Of a stretch of 11,799 nucleotides of DNA, positions 1,459 to 9,581 are shown one piece after another. Numbering within the stretch: position 1 is the stretch's first letter; every line of letters starts with the position of its first letter. The notes beneath the pieces are model-generated. The model worked only from the letters and a program-made list of their open reading frames with translations, had not been told where the DNA came from and did not search any database. This DNA comes from a virus. Taxonomy: Duplodnaviria; Heunggongvirae; Uroviricota; Caudoviricetes. The translations under genes were made by a program, and so were the position numbers. The DNA lies in IMG/VR virus record IMGVR_UViG_2562617151_000001, positions 1 to 11,799 of that record, one strand, 5' to 3'.

Positions 1459-2622
1459 TTACACATCATTAGTACCTTCCTTATTTTTTGACTGGGACAA
1501 ATTTGGGACCGATGGGTTCAGGATCGAGTCTATTTGCCGTGCGTGTTCGGTAAGGTGATTAGGTGCGAGGTGAGCATATCGACGAACCATTTCGATAGAC
1601 TCCCAGCCTCCCATTTCCTGTAACACTGACAACGGGACACCGGCTTGAACCAGCCAACTTGCCCAGGTGTGTCTCAAGTCATGAAATCTGAAATCATCAA
1701 TACCAGCTCGTCTCAGCGCCGCTTTCCAGGCTGTGTTTGCGTCATATCGCATCTTCCTGACTGTTGGCGCTTTCGTTCCGTCTGGTTTGGTACAGCTTTC
1801 CTTGTACACAAATACCCAATGGTGATGATTCCCGATTTGTTTTTTCAATACGCGACATGCAGTATCATTCAGCGCAACGCCAATTGCGCGGTTTGATTTA
1901 CTCTCTTCCGGGTTTATCCATGCCACCCGGCGCTGCATATCTATTTGTTGCCATTCAAGGTTGATGATGTTCGAGCGTCTTAAGCCTGTTGCCAGTGCAA
2001 ATTCAACAACAGACTTTAATGGCTCCGGACATTCATCAATCAGCCTTTGTGCTTCATGAGGCTCCAGCCAGCGGATCCGTTTATTCTTTGGTTGAGGCAC
2101 TTTAATAATTGGTGCCTTATCCAGCATTTTCCATTCACGCTCTGCGGCTCTTAGTAGGGCCTTTATAAATGAAAGATGCGTAGCCTTCGTTGCAACGGAC
2201 GCTGGTTTTGGCGTGTATTCTGGAACAGGTTTCCCTTTTTTTCTGCATGCTTCTGCCCTGAGTTTCCAGTTTTCCTCATGACGCCGGTTCGTCATTTTCT
2301 GCATTGCTGAATAAATTTTTGATTCAGTAATGTCTCTTAGTTGCATTCCTGCGAAATGTTGAAGCCAGAATCCGATCCGGCTTTTGTCATCGTCCAGTGA
2401 TTTTTTATGTGCTTTCTCTTCAAGCCACCTGACACACGCTTCCTCGAACGTTATATCAGGTATTTCACCAAGTTTGCTGACCCGCCATGCTTCAGCCTTT
2501 AGCTTGTCATGGAGTTCTGTCGCCTGCCTTTTGTCCTTTGTTCCAAGAGACTGTTTAAATCTTTTACCGTTCGGCAATGTGAAACTGGCGTACCATATTT
2601 CACCTCTGCGGAAGAGTGACAT
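1459..2622 (-). CDS. int: phage integrase, tyrosine recombinase, P22 Int-like, 387 aa
   Basis: ORF translation [47 protein letters not shown]...[39 protein letters not shown] matches my recollection of P22 integrase almost end to end, including the C-terminal R..H..R..Y catalytic region. It is adjacent to the tRNA target; stop TAA at 1461-1459. Confidence 0.95.
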
Positions 2623-5060: not shown

Positions 5061-5423
5061 TTAACGACCTGCTGCGCGGAGTTTTCCGTCAGGTTCACCG
5101 GCAAGAGTCAGTAACTGTCCCTGGTCTTCCTGCAGAATAGTCAGGCGACCACCGCGATTGACATACATCGGCGTTTCGGTGGTGTCTTCTTCGGAAATTT
5201 TCCCGCGGTTAGTCGGGCGAACATATGAGAGTTTGTGTTTGATTTTCACACGGTTCTCATCAAATGGTTCGATTTCCAGGTTGAGTGAGACCTTACCTTT
5301 GGTTTTCGTGTTCATCACACCGGAAGCGACTTCACTGAGAACTGCGCCGATTTTGGTTTCAAATACGCCGCCGTCCAGCTCCCCGATAAATGCATGCACA
5401 TCAGTACTGCGTTCGCTAGCCAT
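5061..5423 (-). CDS. YfdP-like prophage protein, 120 aa; the track ORF is N-terminally over-extended
   Basis: Start placed at MASERSTDVHAFIGELDGGVFETKIGAVLSEV (ATG 5423-5421) because GAGGAG lies about 8 nt upstream. The 106 codons upstream in the track ORF are R/C/P-rich low-complexity translation of GC-rich non-coding DNA. Confidence 0.65.
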   Translation of the reverse strand: MASERSTDVHAFIGELDGGVFETKIGAVLSEVASGVMNTKTKGKVSLNLEIEPFDENRVKIKHKLSYVRPTNRGKISEEDTTETPMYVNRGGRLTILQEDQGQLLTLAGEPDGKLRAAGR

Positions 5424-5439
5424 TTTGCTGCTCCTCATC

Positions 5440-5760
5440 ATATCGACCCTGCAAGGCCGATTAGTTTCTCCACAAAACAGAGAAGAACACCTGCGGTGGC
5501 AGCCGCCCGGATGGATTGGGTTATGAGCCCGTCGTCCGGTGATGCTCTTCTCTGTTTTGTAAAAAGGACGGTACCAGCCGGAAGCAAGGGTACAAACTGG
5601 TACCGCCGGGACTACACACAGCATAAAGTTGTGGTGCCGGGTGCCTCCCGGTGCCTGGCGAAGGTTGCACACCAGACGGGTGGGTATCCACAGAAGGTCG
5701 ACTGTCAGCCTCAACCTTAACCCGCGTGCGCTGAGCCGCATTCACCACAACGCTAAGAAT
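5440..5760. other. GC-rich structured non-coding block; candidate structured RNA or relic of a foreign element
   Basis: No credible ORF in any frame (all translations are R/P/C-rich). Contains a perfect 15-bp inverted repeat (5472-5486 with 5546-5560), a 9-bp stem (5569-5577 with 5597-5605) and long-range 9-nt complementarity (5628-5636 with 5743-5751). Visibly more GC-rich than the flanking phage DNA. Confidence 0.3.
5472..5560. repeat. perfect 15-bp inverted repeat ACAAAACAGAGAAGA / TCTTCTCTGTTTTGT separated by a 59-nt GC-rich spacer
   Basis: Read directly: arm 5472-5486 is the exact reverse complement of 5546-5560; 2 further complementary bases lie inside after one mismatch. Confidence 0.85.
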
Positions 5761-5824
5761 TCTCTCTGGTTGAAAATACTTAGCTGTTATGTGCCTGCTT
5801 TTAGCCACATCAGGCGAGGTGGAC

Positions 5825-5876
5825 CTGGTTATTCCCCAACAACAAGGATTCGGTTAATCTGGTTATCCCCAACAAC
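5825..5876 (+). repeat. tandem direct repeat CTGGTTAT(T)CCCCAACAAC x2, 34-bp period, immediately upstream of the 144-aa ORF
   Basis: Copy 1 at 5825-5843 and copy 2 at 5859-5876 differ by one extra T; a partial CTGGTT copy lies at 5766-5771. Copy 2 ends 5 nt before the AAGGA SD of the ORF starting at 5892. Confidence 0.8.
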
Positions 5877-5891
5877 GCAAAAGGAAAAGAA

Positions 5892-6326
5892 ATGTCCGGT
5901 AATATCTATACGCTGTACAAATCCCACTGTGAAAATGTTGGAAAGTATCGGGGCATTGAAATCAGTGGGGTAGTGTCATCAGTCGAAATAAGCAAAGTTG
6001 AATCAAGGGCAACATTACTTACTCTTCTGGACCTTGTCTTACATGAGCACCGGAAGAAATTCGGCACTCCCTATAATCAGTTGAATGGGAAAAAAGCTCT
6101 GGTTCACCTTATTCTGATGAAGCATCACTGGATGCCAAAACAGATTAATGAGATGAAATTTGATGAACTTCTTCTTTCAATTCAGGATGAATTCACGCTT
6201 GATAAAATAAGCGTAACCGCCCAGAAATTTTTAGATTATCGAGACTGGAGATCACAAATTCATCACTTTGATGATTTTGACGAAAATGAATGGGATCCTA
6301 ATTTGTCTGCACAATATCTAAAGTAA
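5892..6326 (+). CDS. hypothetical protein, 144 aa, no recognisable family; moron-like, opposite strand to the early-left operon
   Basis: ATG 5892 preceded by AAGGA with a 6-nt spacer; stop TAA 6324-6326. Protein MSGNIYTLYKSHCENVGKYRGIEISGVVSSVEISKVESRATLLTLLDLVLHEHRKKFGTPYNQ... has protein-like composition (K/E/D/H-rich, ordinary hydrophobic content). AT-rich codon usage contrasts with the neighbouring GC-rich block. Confidence 0.7.
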   Translation: MSGNIYTLYKSHCENVGKYRGIEISGVVSSVEISKVESRATLLTLLDLVLHEHRKKFGTPYNQLNGKKALVHLILMKHHWMPKQINEMKFDELLLSIQDEFTLDKISVTAQKFLDYRDWRSQIHHFDDFDENEWDPNLSAQYLK

Positions 6327-6504
6327 CATCCTGTGATAAAACCGTGATTTCCTGATCCAGTTTTTTTAAGGAGTCTATTGTTTCCTGTCGATAAGACAGC
6401 ACTTCACGAAGCTGGTTTATAGCTGCCAGCTTCTTTGCCATCCACTCGTAAATTTCCTCATTTGTGTATCCGGGCGCGACGATTTTGGGTTCTGTTTTGT
6501 GCAT
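6298..6504 (-). CDS. hypothetical small protein, 68 aa; first gene downstream of the putative P_L (the position of N)
   Basis: Start at MHKTEPKIVAPGYTNEEIYEWMAKKLAAINQLREVL... (ATG 6504-6502), preceded by a strong SD GAGGAGG about 7 nt upstream; the track ORF begins 5 codons earlier. The 3' end overlaps the 144-aa ORF by 29 nt (convergent). Confidence 0.6.
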   Translation of the reverse strand: MHKTEPKIVAPGYTNEEIYEWMAKKLAAINQLREVLSYRQETIDSLKKLDQEITVLSQDVTLDIVQTN

Positions 6505-6562
6505 TTCACACCTCCTCAAGTTATCAGTTACTTGTTGATGGGGACCAGATTGTTAAAGAGCT

Positions 6563-6590
6563 AAGCGTCCTGTAGGGCGCTTTTTTGTTG
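6563..6590 (+). terminator. intrinsic (rho-independent) terminator-like hairpin plus T-tract
   Basis: AAGCGTCC-TGTA-GGGCGCTT stem (8 bp including one G-U) followed by TTTTTT at 6581-6586. On the minus strand the stem is preceded by an A-tract and followed by a U-poor sequence, so it is mainly plus-strand and at most weakly bidirectional. Confidence 0.55.
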
Positions 6591-6669: not shown

Positions 6670-6740
6670 AATCTAACTTAACTTAGTTATTATGGCAAGA
6701 GAAAACACCAAACTTTTCTTAGTTCGGTGCCTTAGTTAGA
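6670..6740 (-). promoter_or_regulatory. putative O_L / P_L region (leftward early promoter with repressor operators)
   Basis: Heptamer CTTAGTT occurs at 6682, 6718 and 6731, the same motif as in the cI-cro intergenic region. Minus-strand candidate promoter: -35 TTGCCA (complement of 6693-6698), 17-nt spacer containing AACTTAGTT, -10 TAGATT (complement of 6670-6675). Confidence 0.4.
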
Positions 6741-6751
6741 GAAGAGAGGTC

Positions 6752-7378
6752 TTAGAGTTCGTATTGAACTCCTTTGACTACACCAATGATAAGGCAATTA
6801 CCATTGATAGGGATGTTGGGATACCGAGGATTTAATGGCACTAAAAACTTTTGAGGGCCATCGATGACTAATTTTTTTACTGTAGCTTCGTTTGTTCCAT
6901 CAAGTCGAGCGATGACTATTTTTCCATGACGAGGTTCTGCATCTGGATCTACAATCACTGTTGCGCCTTCTGGTATTGTTGGGAGGCCATTAGGGTTAGT
7001 CATGGAGTCACCTTTAACCTCTAATGCAAATGAGTTATCACCAATCTTTAATGATGTATCTACCCACTTGTCCACTTCACTAAACACTTCTGCTGCCCTG
7101 CACTCAGTAAACTGCCCAGCCTGAACCCACGATATTACAGGAACTCTGCGCATGTTTGTGACGAGTTTGCCTTCAAACTCAGCACCATAAAGAATGTAAT
7201 CTATTGACGTATTGAAGAACTTCGCTAATTTCGAAAGTGCCTCCCCACCAGGGGTATTGATGTCTTTCTCCCAGTACCCCACAGCAACGTCGCTTACTCC
7301 ACAAAATTTACCCAATTCTTTCTGGGACGTTCCGGTAACTCTTCTCAGAGCTTTTATACGCTGACCAACCGTTTCCAT
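6752..7378 (-). CDS. cI: prophage repressor, CI / P22 C2-like (N-terminal HTH plus C-terminal S24 LexA-like autopeptidase domain), 208 aa
   Basis: ORF METVGQRIKALRRVTGTSQKELGKFCGVSDVAVGYWEKD... (HTH) ... ISWVQAGQF...LEVKGDSMTNP...ATVIVDPDAEPRHGKIVIARLDG.EATVKKL...GNCLIIGVV. Ser-Lys dyad context and overall architecture match the lambda CI / P22 C2 class. Divergent from cro. Confidence 0.92.
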   Translation of the reverse strand: METVGQRIKALRRVTGTSQKELGKFCGVSDVAVGYWEKDINTPGGEALSKLAKFFNTSIDYILYGAEFEGKLVTNMRRVPVISWVQAGQFTECRAAEVFSEVDKWVDTSLKIGDNSFALEVKGDSMTNPNGLPTIPEGATVIVDPDAEPRHGKIVIARLDGTNEATVKKLVIDGPQKFLVPLNPRYPNIPINGNCLIIGVVKGVQYEL

Positions 7379-7396: not shown

Positions 7397-7468
7397 ATTG
7401 CTAAGTAATCTTAGTTTTTATTGACCAAAGATAGATTTGTAATTAGCATCTAATAAAACTTAGTTTGG
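7397..7468 (+). promoter_or_regulatory. putative O_R / P_R region between cI and cro
   Basis: Near-palindrome CTAAGTAATCTTAG at 7401-7414; CTTAGTT at 7410 and 7459; 9-mer AACTTAGTT at 7457-7465 is identical to 6680-6688. Candidate P_R: -35 TTGACC 7421-7426, 17-nt spacer, -10 TAGCAT 7444-7449, then SD GGAGG 7467-7471 and cro ATG 7476. Confidence 0.45.
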
Positions 7469-8440: not shown

Positions 8441-8620
8441 TTGCGACAAGTTAACCGCTGGTTCAAAGATCACTACGGAGTACCCGTCAGAGTCATTCGT
8501 TGGGAGCCGGAAACACAACGGGTTATCTACCTCCGCGAAGGCTATGAGCATGAATGCTTCAGTCCGCTCGAACAGTTTCGTCGTAAATTCAGGGAAATAG
8601 AGGTCGGTCATGAGCACTAA
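8441..8620 (+). CDS. possible small protein (59 aa) with TTG start; alternative to the ATG-initiated 112-aa ORF 8262..8600
   Basis: AAGGAG sits 8 nt upstream of TTG 8441. The frame gives [59 protein letters not shown], a protein-like composition, ending at TAA 8618-8620 (overlapping the initiator start by 11 nt). It is absent from the ATG/GTG-based track. Confidence 0.35.
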
Positions 8621-9581
8621 ATTAACCGGCTATGTATGGGATGGTTGCGCTGCGTCAGGCATGAAATTATCCAGCGTGGCAATTATGGCCCGCCTGGCTG
8701 ATTTCAGTAATGACGAAGGTGTGTGCTGGCCATCAATTGAAACCATTGCCCGTCAGATTGGCGCGGGGATGAGTACCGTCAGAACGGCTATCGCACGGCT
8801 GGAAGCAGAAGGCTGGTTAACGCGTAAGGCGCGTCGCCAGGGTAACCGCAATGCGTCGAATGTTTATCAGCTTAACGTTGCGAAGCTTCAGGCAGCGGCA
8901 TTTTCTCAATTGTCAGATTCTGACCCGTCAAAATCTGACGCATCAAAATCTGACCCGTCAAAATCTGACGCATCAAAATCTGACCCGTCAAAATTTGATG
9001 CGTCGAAATCTGGCAAAAAAGCGGGTTTTCACCCGTCAGAATCTGGCGGGGATCCGTCAGTAAAATCAAAACATGATCCGTCAGATAAAAAAACTTCTCG
9101 TCCGGACGCTTCGCAACCGGACACGCAGACGGCTGAACAGGAGTTTTTAACTCGCCATCCTGATGCGGTTGTATTCAGCCCTAAAAAGCGCCAGTGGGGA
9201 ACGCAGGATGATTTGACCTGCGCACAGTGGCTCTGGAAAAAAATCATCGCCCTGTACGAGCAGGCCGCCGAATGTGACGGCGAGGTGGTTCGTCCCAAAG
9301 AACCGAACTGGACAGCCTGGGCAAACGAAATTCGCCTGATGTGTGTGCAGGATGGTCGTACTCACAAACAAATCTGCGAGATGTACAGCCGCGTCAGCCG
9401 CGATCCGTTCTGGTGCCGTAACGTGCTCAGCCCGTCGAAGCTGCGGGAAAAATGGGATGAGCTTTCCCTGCGCTTATCGCCGTCCGTCAGCACGTACACA
9501 GAAAAACGCGAAGACCCGTACTTCAAAGCCAGTTACGACAACGTGGACTACAGCCAGATCCCGGCAGGATTCAGGGGGTGA
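8610..9581 (+). CDS. phage replication initiation protein (lambda O-like role; N-terminal HTH, internal iteron-encoded linker), 323 aa
   Basis: N-terminus [70 protein letters not shown] is a typical helix-turn-helix replication-protein domain. The internal SDPSKSDASKSDPSKSDASK stretch is encoded by a 15-bp iteron array, the lambdoid ori-within-initiator arrangement. SD AGAGG precedes ATG 8610. Confidence 0.85.
   Translation: MSTKLTGYVWDGCAASGMKLSSVAIMARLADFSNDEGVCWPSIETIARQIGAGMSTVRTAIARLEAEGWLTRKARRQGNRNASNVYQLNVAKLQAAAFSQLSDSDPSKSDASKSDPSKSDASKSDPSKFDASKSGKKAGFHPSESGGDPSVKSKHDPSDKKTSRPDASQPDTQTAEQEFLTRHPDAVVFSPKKRQWGTQDDLTCAQWLWKKIIALYEQAAECDGEVVRPKEPNWTAWANEIRLMCVQDGRTHKQICEMYSRVSRDPFWCRNVLSPSKLREKWDELSLRLSPSVSTYTEKREDPYFKASYDNVDYSQIPAGFRG
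8919..9008. repeat. iteron array: six tandem 15-bp units alternating TCTGACCCGTCAAAA / TCTGACGCATCAAAA; probable prophage origin of replication
   Basis: Units at 8919, 8934, 8949, 8964, 8979 and 8994 (the last degenerate), with degenerate copies flanking (8911-8918, 9009-9023) and GATCCGTCAG repeated at 9051 and 9075, followed by an A-rich stretch at 9084-9095. Located inside the initiator CDS. Confidence 0.85.

Follow-up and report, generated by a model that had tools for sequence, protein, structure and literature searches.

Why does a phage keep two copies of the same short sequence, one behind the other, immediately in front of a single small gene? The question is raised by positions 5825 to 5876 of an 11,799-nt stretch of DNA (the whole of which is called the window below) from a virus of the Caudoviricetes, IMG/VR record IMGVR_UViG_2562617151_000001. 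The window comes from a lambdoid prophage of the SfIV/SfV/CPS-53 type, of which it covers the integration and early region, and the two direct repeats stand just upstream of an open reading frame (ORF) of 144 amino acids (aa). An original prediction, made from the letters of the sequence, had proposed that the pair is either the binding site of a regulator that recognises direct repeats or an iteron-like element, and that it controls the ORF as a moron. A moron, in the sense of Hendrix and colleagues, is an extra gene with its own promoter and terminator inside a phage operon. Our analysis gave a different answer. With a probability of roughly 0.65, the repeats are the core of a sieB-type moron control module that combines a promoter with an antisense RNA and is homologous to the sieB/sas region of phage P22.

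The two repeats are conserved as a pair

The left repeat (DR1), CTGGTTATTCCCCAACAAC, occupies positions 5825 to 5843 of the plus strand, and the right repeat (DR2), CTGGTTATCCCCAACAAC, occupies positions 5859 to 5876 of the same strand, the single difference between them being one extra T. They are spaced 34 nt from start to start, or 33 nt when the distance is taken on their exact 11-nt core, TCCCCAACAAC, and the similarity of the two units (GGTGGACCTGGTTATTCCC against GGTTAATCTGGTTATCCCC) reaches further to the left than originally given. Both CTGGTTAT, for which 0.23 occurrences are expected, and the exact 11-mer TCCCCAACAAC occur exactly twice in the window. Taken alone, the 11-nt core is weak evidence, because an exact 11-mer repeated within 50 nt was present in 203 of 2000 shuffled windows (~10%); an 8-mer and an 11-mer in register are far rarer, at ~3e-4 per window by our own estimate. 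The decisive evidence for the repeats is their conservation, since the two-repeat layout was recovered in 37 distinct module variants. The description of two direct copies 34 bp apart was thus borne out. The partial third copy that had been described, CTGGTT, is indeed present at 5766-5771, but it lies outside the conserved unit. We take it as a coincidence because it is located to the left of the module, inside an STnc100-like RNA, and about six such 6-mers are expected by chance per window (an estimate).

The repeats form the core of a module that precedes many different genes

Comparison with related phages revealed that the repeats are the core of a ~90-bp module common among lambdoid phages and first recognised at sieB of P22, in which a conserved box is followed by DR1, a -10-like hexamer and DR2. 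The box, GTGCCTGCTTTTAGCCACATCAGGCGAGGTGG, spans positions 5791 to 5822, makes up the left part of the module and contains two overlapping short helices, GCCUG/CAGGC and CCAC/GUGG. It is nearly invariant in more than 60 module variants from Escherichia, Shigella, Salmonella, Klebsiella, Cronobacter, Providencia and Rahnella; the Rac box carries a compensated helix, GCCCGG/CCGGGC, and in P22 the box falls near the 3′ end of the sas antisense RNA, inside the sas sequence. The boundaries of the module are sharp. The homology shared with phages that carry a different cargo, such as PhiR29_1, an O157 prophage, Klebsiella phages and Salmonella phage F1055, stops exactly at 5876, the last base of DR2, and homology to phages of the SfV type, which have no repeats and carry single-hairpin variants instead, stops at 5822. 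In all 37 two-repeat variants the repeats are spaced by 33-35 bp, and DR1 begins 8-13 nt past the box.

A scan of viral contigs for the box yielded 73 distinct module variants. The genes located after the module fell into 23 clusters, a few of which stem from chance matches to the box, and at least 20 unrelated protein clusters are represented, including SieB, the ECs1072 family, a YmfI-like protein, small membrane proteins and zinc-ribbon proteins. Sequences matching positions 5780-5895 were found in 1525 of 5426 complete Escherichia coli genomes, and 972 of the 5426 (~18%) had at least 80% of this interval covered, that is, the box and both repeats. A scan of genome contigs with the box pattern returned mostly chance matches, and five true modules were recognised among the matches listed, including examples from E. 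coli, Providencia and Rahnella. No covariance model of an Rfam 15 family matched the module (positions 5790-5900) at E <= 1, the closest hit being the STnc100-like RNA to its left (see below).

The repeat is present before every homologue of the 144-aa ORF that was examined, as the original prediction had suggested looking for. It is not specific to this ORF, however, but belongs to a shared module serving many different genes. The claim that the repeats control the moron ORF therefore stands in so far as regulatory-looking DNA lies directly before it, and has to be given up in so far as that DNA is not private to the 144-aa gene. The locus fits the definition of a moron in its promoter (by homology), in the terminator-like hairpin at 6563-6582, in its lower G+C content and in an orientation opposite to that of the operon. 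It differs from one in that the promoter and leader are not specific to the cargo and form a platform shared by many cargos.

Coding sequence was considered as an explanation for the conservation, in the form of SfIV_35, an annotated ORF at 5629-5973, and was ruled out, as the module tolerates 1-nt insertions and deletions in the box and in the repeat spacing. Two ORFs cross the small RNA (sRNA), the box and the repeats: a 226-aa extended form of the yfdP-like gene (5061-5741, minus strand) and the 114-aa ORF at 5629-5973 (plus strand), which corresponds to SfIV_35 in SfIV. Neither is likely to be a gene; in the annotations of SfV and PhiR29_1 the yfdP-like gene has 120 aa.

An iteron-like nature of the repeats was not supported, as there are only two copies and no replication gene lies nearby. 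An iteron-like array is found instead at 8911-9012, where tandem repeats of ~20 nt lie inside the replication-protein gene (8610-9581); these surfaced as false microRNA matches in the Rfam scan and are probably the origin iterons. Sites for direct-repeat activators of the CII type have the form TTGC-N6-TTGC. The repeats studied here share with iterons and with CII-type sites the property of being direct repeats near a promoter, and differ from them in consisting of two copies 34 bp apart, in lacking a TTGC-type motif and in showing a strand-specific, RNA-like constraint (see below).

The element is a homologue of the P22 sieB promoter and sas region

In the P22 record BK000583, the sieB promoter is annotated at 29690-29720 and a 'sieB RNA start site' at 29727, which is the A that opens DR2. 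The annotated promoter spans DR1 and the inter-repeat segment, with its -10 element between the repeats. Given that the P22 RNA starts at the first base of DR2, DR1 is located in P22 at -34 to -25, and DR2 supplies the first ten bases of the mRNA. P22 also produces an antisense RNA, sas (Ranade and Poteete 1993, as cited in PMC12197685 and PMC13397905), for which a 127-nt sequence was reported in a P22 small-RNA data set from infected cells (PMC13397905). This sequence is the reverse complement of the sieB start codon, DR2, DR1, the box and ~15 further bases, and when used as a query it matched 119 phage records.

The layout of a box, two identical repeats 34 bp apart and a Shine-Dalgarno sequence precedes sieB in lambda, in Rac of K-12 and in P22, and the alignment of the window with these three and with five other variants is continuous from the box through DR2. 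The order of cI (6752-7378, minus strand), the pL-like promoter (6670-6698, minus strand), the cargo gene (5892-6326, plus strand) and the yfdP-like gene (5061-5423, minus strand) is also the same in P22, lambda and Rac. As judged from these alignments, the window element is a homologue of the P22 sieB promoter and sas region with a different repeat sequence and a different cargo. The two loci share a homologous box, a homologous DR1 hairpin, an identical pair of repeats that are spaced by 33-34 bp and enclose a -10, and a gene that is transcribed against the early leftward operon at the same genome position. They differ in the repeat core, which is CCCCTACAG in P22 and CCCCAACAAC in the window, in the cargo, which is SieB/Esc in P22 and an ECs1072-family protein in the window, and in their right-hand surroundings, as the window cassette directly abuts boxA whereas an N-type gene separates the two in P22. 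No sieB cargo with an internal esc start was found in the window, whose cargo belongs to NF033230 and clusters apart from the SieB proteins; the esc start is a property of the cargo of P22 and not of the module.

The regions upstream of sieB in lambda and Rac likewise have a box and two repeats before a rightward gene inside the leftward early operon, and in Rac the sRNA KilS is located just to the left of the module, as is the STnc100/KilS-like RNA in the window. Lambda and Rac differ from the window in repeat sequence and cargo, and Rac also in its box helix. We found no described function for the lambda or Rac repeats in the searchable literature, and a search for diverse sieB loci with the Rac SieB protein as the query returned only near-identical Rac copies.

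A promoter is predicted between and across the repeats

DR1 is equivalent to the -35 region of the P22 sieB promoter, according to the annotated coordinates and the alignment with P22, lambda and Rac. The -10-like element of the window, GTTAAT / TAATCT, is located between the repeats at 5853 to 5860 (plus strand) and aligns with the P22 sieB -10, GATAAA/TAAACT, within the annotated promoter. When the inter-repeat segment of each of the 37 two-repeat variants was searched for its best -10-like hexamer, this agreed with TATAAT at 4-6 of 6 positions (perfectly in 10 variants), and the gap between its end and the start of DR2 was 5-7 nt in 33. Since this is a normal distance from a -10 to a transcription start, the mRNA of the 144-aa gene is predicted, by homology to P22 only, to start at about 5865 to 5867 (plus strand) and to have a leader of ~27 nt, of which the DR2 core would form the first ~12 nt. 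The window promoter is accordingly placed, by homology, with DR1 at about -35 and DR2 at the predicted 5′ end of the mRNA. A Shine-Dalgarno sequence, AAGGA (5881 to 5885, plus strand), follows 4 nt past DR2; it is linked to the cargo, lies outside the conserved module and is followed by an ATG at 5892. It had been noted originally that no clean sigma70 hexamers are visible nearby. We likewise saw no clean hexamer pair, and the -35 region is a poor match to the consensus in every family, but a promoter is predicted by homology to the annotated P22 sieB promoter.

Such an arrangement could also be expected if the repeats were duplex-DNA sites for a direct-repeat regulator, with protomers on the -35 region and on the start site that repress or activate the moron promoter. 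Identical sites at about -34 and +1, combined with a poor -35, are located where a repressor or a class II activator classically binds. On the other hand, a spacing of 33-35 bp leaves the two sites ~0.2-0.3 turn out of phase, and no further copy of the repeat is found in the cI/cro operator region. The more specific possibility that the repeats are an operator of the cI repressor (oL) was ruled out, as no copy is present in the cI/cro region and the repeats occur with different repressors. Two further lines of evidence that bear on a regulator, the pattern of substitutions and the distribution of repeat types, are described in the following two sections.

The repeats are predicted to form hairpins, with a constraint on the antisense strand

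On the opposite strand, DR1 is predicted to fold into a hairpin with a GGGG tetraloop (antisense hairpin II; 5824 to 5848, minus strand), CCU-U-GUUGUU-GGGG-AAUAAC-C-AGG, the equivalent of which in P22 and lambda is UUCUCG-C-UGUA-GGGG-UACA-CGAGAA. The leftward strand of DR2 gives a weaker hairpin, GUUGU-UGGGG-AUAAC. In an alignment of 33 sequences (A2), the DR1 hairpin showed changes on both sides in 8 of its 11 pairs, and 87.7% of the cells pair. The structure tested as a whole, which comprised the DR1 hairpin and the two near-invariant box helices, had a covariation score of 0.265 compared with 0.125 in shuffles, and none of the 500 shuffles reached 0.265; the box helices barely vary in a set that was selected on the box motif, so this score says nothing about them. 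When the partners were slid against each other, 32-44% of the cells paired.

The hairpins are systematically better on the antisense strand. For DR1, the antisense strand was the more stable one in 44 of 47 variants and contained 36 G·U pairs compared with 7 on the sense strand; for DR2, the same was true of 30 of 34 variants, and the antisense strand had 76 G·U pairs where the sense strand had 24. Because a G·U pair of the antisense strand would be an A·C mismatch on the sense strand, the constraint is strand-specific and RNA-like. Substitutions of this kind, with G·U tolerated on one strand only, argue against double-stranded protein-binding sites.

The two copies change in concert

Several families of modules can be distinguished by their repeat cores, namely CCCCAACAAC (the window), CCCCTACAG (lambda, P22 and Rac), TTCCACAGTCAA (including Providencia), CCCCAATGCAA and CCCCAACGA. 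Within each family both copies are identical and spaced by 33-35 bp, in contrast to the adjoining stems and spacers, which differ. Repeat types occur in shuffled combinations with left flanks, cargos and repressors, which indicates that the constraint is internal to the module. Resemblances by eye to a DnaA box, an IHF site, CsrA GGA motifs and a GcvB-type C/A-rich target were dropped, as the motif varies between families.

Identity of the copies in every family would also suit a regulator that binds both of them. However, with the repeat type shuffled against repressor, flank and cargo, no linked gene could supply the matching specificity. Lambda and P22, moreover, share the repeat although their immunity repressors differ. 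Together with the strand-specific substitutions, the independence of the repeat type from the repressor, the left neighbour and the cargo tells against the direct-repeat regulator of the original prediction, and we regard such a regulator as unlikely.

The single-hairpin variants, such as that of SfV, suggest how the pair arose. They have one hairpin after the box, the 3′ arm of which serves as the Shine-Dalgarno sequence of a rightward 81-aa ORF that is not annotated (SfV locus 2720-2765), and where the box ends, GGTGGTAT, a sequence resembling an extended -10, is present in 21 of 21 single-hairpin variants and in 0 of 38 two-repeat variants. In the two-repeat form, the repeated unit extends to the left as far as the -10 position (GGTGGAC... 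compared with GGTTAAT...), and AAGGA follows both copies. Because the similarity of the units reaches the -10, AAGGA follows both copies and GGTGGTAT is limited to the single-hairpin forms, the two-repeat form resembles the product of a 34-bp tandem duplication; the duplicated unit would have included a -10, a start site and a Shine-Dalgarno sequence, and the upstream -10 would have decayed later.

These same features could be taken to mean that the repeats are no more than the relic of this duplication, now serving as linker homology for the swapping of cargo genes by recombination and having no role that needs two copies. The extent of the repeated unit and the resemblance of the single-hairpin variants to an unduplicated form agree with this explanation, as do the mosaic breakpoints at 5822 and 5876. 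A neutral relic would be expected to drift, whereas in at least four sequence families the two cores are still identical despite the divergence of the surrounding stems and spacers; in addition, the DR1 hairpin has compensatory changes and the spacing is fixed at 33-35 bp. We consider it improbable that the repeats have no function beyond this origin.

A third, inverted copy is present near boxA in window-type cassettes

At the other end of the cassette, a boxA, GCUCUUUAACAA (6561-6550, minus strand), is followed by an inverted copy of the repeat, UCUGGUCCCCAUCAACAAG (6549-6531, minus strand), located 27 nt before a leftward 68-aa gene. In the leftward leader (6528-6582) a hairpin precedes a perfect boxA, which is the order of rRNA operons and unlike that of the lambda nut sites. 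The loop of this hairpin reads CCCUACAGG and resembles the lambda-type repeat. Of 52 two-repeat loci, 41 have a leftward boxA on the right-hand side of the module, at a distance of 0.46-2.5 kb (mostly 0.46-1.4 kb). In phages of the window type the ends of the cassette are co-varying inverted repeats, with TCTGGATATCC, TCTGGATGACT or GTAACCCTC at both ends of the same cassette. When the inverted copy was sought across the families, it was found only in window-type cassettes and not in the lambda/P22-type or the TTCCACAGTCAA-type.

These observations raise the possibility that the repeats act in the sense RNA, as a C/A-rich leader that aids translation or mRNA stability, for example if the 5′ end were to pair with the inverted copy at 6531-6549 in the 3′ untranslated region. 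The prediction of DR2 as the mRNA 5′ end would fit, and so would the position of the inverted copy just before the terminator of the same transcript and the co-variation of the cassette ends in the window family. DR1, however, is located upstream of the predicted start and would thus be absent from the mRNA. As the lambda/P22-type families keep two identical repeats without an inverted copy, which also holds for the TTCCACAGTCAA-type, the inverted copy cannot explain why the direct copies match. The better hairpins on the antisense strand also point away from a role in the sense RNA, to which we give little credence.

Proposed mechanism

A control module homologous to P22 sieB/sas, in which an antisense RNA would act on the moron mRNA, is the explanation that we favour. 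The present comparison itself established the homology and the boundaries of the module, the covariation of the hairpin, the asymmetry between the strands and where the -10 lies, and what is said of the promoter, of the site at which its RNA begins and of the length of sas comes from the P22 record and the P22 small-RNA data set. In the rightward direction, a weak promoter would express the 144-aa gene in the lysogen, and DR2 would be the single-stranded, C/A-rich 5′ end of its mRNA. In the leftward direction, loss of the repressor would allow transcription from the pL-like promoter (~6670-6698) to read through the cargo gene in antisense and to give rise to a sas-like RNA. Indirect support for such an RNA comes from the covariation and the G·U asymmetry seen on the leftward strand and from the pL-like promoter itself. 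In this RNA each repeat would form a hairpin with a G-rich (GGGG) loop, followed by the box. Being complementary to the leader, the Shine-Dalgarno sequence and the start codon, it may shut off the moron at the lytic switch. The DR1 hairpin would lie outside the overlap of sense and antisense RNA, and its loop may pair with the 5′ end of the mRNA. Such pairing between loop and 5′ end is possible only if DR1 equals DR2, which is our proposed reason for the identity of the two copies, although we hold this part of the model to be less likely than not.

A comparable first contact is known from IS10, where a loop of the antisense RNA-OUT meets the 5′ end of the RNA-IN mRNA. The comparison is by analogy only. 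In both cases the (here proposed) first contact is between the loop of an antisense hairpin and an unstructured mRNA 5′ end. The two systems are not homologous, and they differ in that the IS10 loop lies inside the overlap, whereas the DR1 hairpin lies outside it and its complementarity is kept by a direct repeat.

Several points weigh against this interpretation. The start site, the antisense RNA and the shut-off proposed for this phage are all carried over from P22 by homology. The SieB-to-Esc translational switch is inapplicable to the window because the cargo is unrelated to SieB. Folding of the whole region was no more stable than that of shuffled sequences (z = +1.0 for the window antisense strand and z = -1.8 for P22 sas); such energies are uninformative here, and the structural case consequently rests on covariation, for which the shuffle controls are inflated, the aligned variants being related. 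The DR2 hairpin of the window has only 5 bp and is not uniform across families. Finally, as the -35 region is poor in every family, an activator that acts at DR1 may be involved.

A more far-reaching version can be put forward only tentatively, as a possibility that we consider less than even. The module may be a portable platform, such that any gene placed after DR2 would gain both expression in the lysogen and antisense shut-off, with the repeat keeping the seed at -35 equal to the sequence at +1 and with the seeds of the families (CCCCAACAAC, CCCCTACAG, TTCCACAGTCAA and CCCCAATGCAA) being orthogonal. As part of the same reading, and at the same tentative level, the system would be a cis-antisense RNA that uses a seed of the trans type maintained by selection.

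The cargo gene and the surrounding early region

Positions 5600-6400 of the window are 99% identical to phages Kati and SfIV. The cargo gene (5892 to 6326, plus strand) encodes a 144-aa phage-associated protein of the ECs1072 family, as indicated by a match to NCBIfam NF033230 at 156 bits (cut-off 70) and by phrog_5286, and no matches to it were obtained in Pfam, PADLOC or PDB-sequence searches. Its G+C content is low (35-41%, compared with 52-58% to the left). An ECs1072 homologue is on a list of genes with changed expression in uninduced cultures of O157 Sakai, in agreement with expression of the moron in a lysogen. The transcript of the moron would end at an intrinsic-terminator-like hairpin followed by a T run (6563 to 6582, plus strand), which, read leftward, precedes boxA and is also present in PhiR29_1, downstream of a different cargo. 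Convergent with the cargo gene is the 68-aa gene (6504-6298, minus strand), which overlaps the 3′ end of the 144-aa ORF by 29 nt. It most likely starts at the ATG at 6504, located behind GAGGAGG, the listed TTG at 6519 being less likely; phrog_1744 matches residues 6-73 of the longer form, which starts at this TTG.

Farther to the right, the pL-like leftward early promoter, TTGCCA-17-TAGATT (6670 to 6698, minus strand), was recognised in a promoter scan and is the presumed source of the antisense RNA. It is flanked by AACTAAG heptamers, of which the window contains 6 copies where ~1 is expected; five are located at 6682-6737 and 7410-7465, that is, at the pL-like promoter and in the cI/cro intergenic region. 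These heptamers are likely the repressor operators, and their occurrence at both places fits control of leftward transcription by the repressor. The repressor gene cI (6752-7378, minus strand) is of the LexA type, with cro-like and cII-like genes to its right.

To the left of the module, an STnc100-like RNA is located at 5558-5781 (minus strand), where the score for Rfam model RF02076 was 42.3 bits (E = 1.6e-6), short of the gathering score of 47. The K-12 Rac sRNA KilS, terminator included, aligns with the 3′ part of this RNA (5561-5623), and the 5′ end of the Rfam STnc100 model (5781) abuts the point at which the sas-like RNA would end. An inverted repeat with 25-nt arms that are 84% complementary (5472-5496 / 5536-5560) is located in the leader of the yfdP-like gene, between the terminator of the sRNA and the start of the gene, and is conserved in SfV, PhiR29_1 and ST64B. 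The yfdP-like gene (5061-5423, minus strand) ends the leftward operon. The integrase gene (1459-2622, minus strand) was assigned by its position and the SfIV annotation, and the adjacent tRNA-Thr gene (anticodon CGT; 1369-1444) likely marks the prophage attachment site.

Implications for lambdoid prophages

The genes in this slot are those that a prophage expresses for the benefit of its host or of itself. SieB, which acts in superinfection exclusion, is the example known so far, and no function has been assigned to most of the remaining cargo families, of which there are 20 or more. Once a resident phage itself turns lytic, genes of this kind have to be silenced, a task that in P22 falls to sas. 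Two aspects are possibly new here: how widely the module serves as a shared platform, and the rule that keeps the sequences at -35 and +1 identical. If one module, with repeats specific to each family, precedes many cargos and has its box and both repeats in ~18% of complete E. coli genomes, it would provide a sequence handle for finding accessory and defence genes of prophages, a means of predicting their start sites and a testable rule for their expression in lysis and lysogeny. The concerted change of the repeats amounts to a natural experiment on how an antisense RNA of this kind recognises its target.

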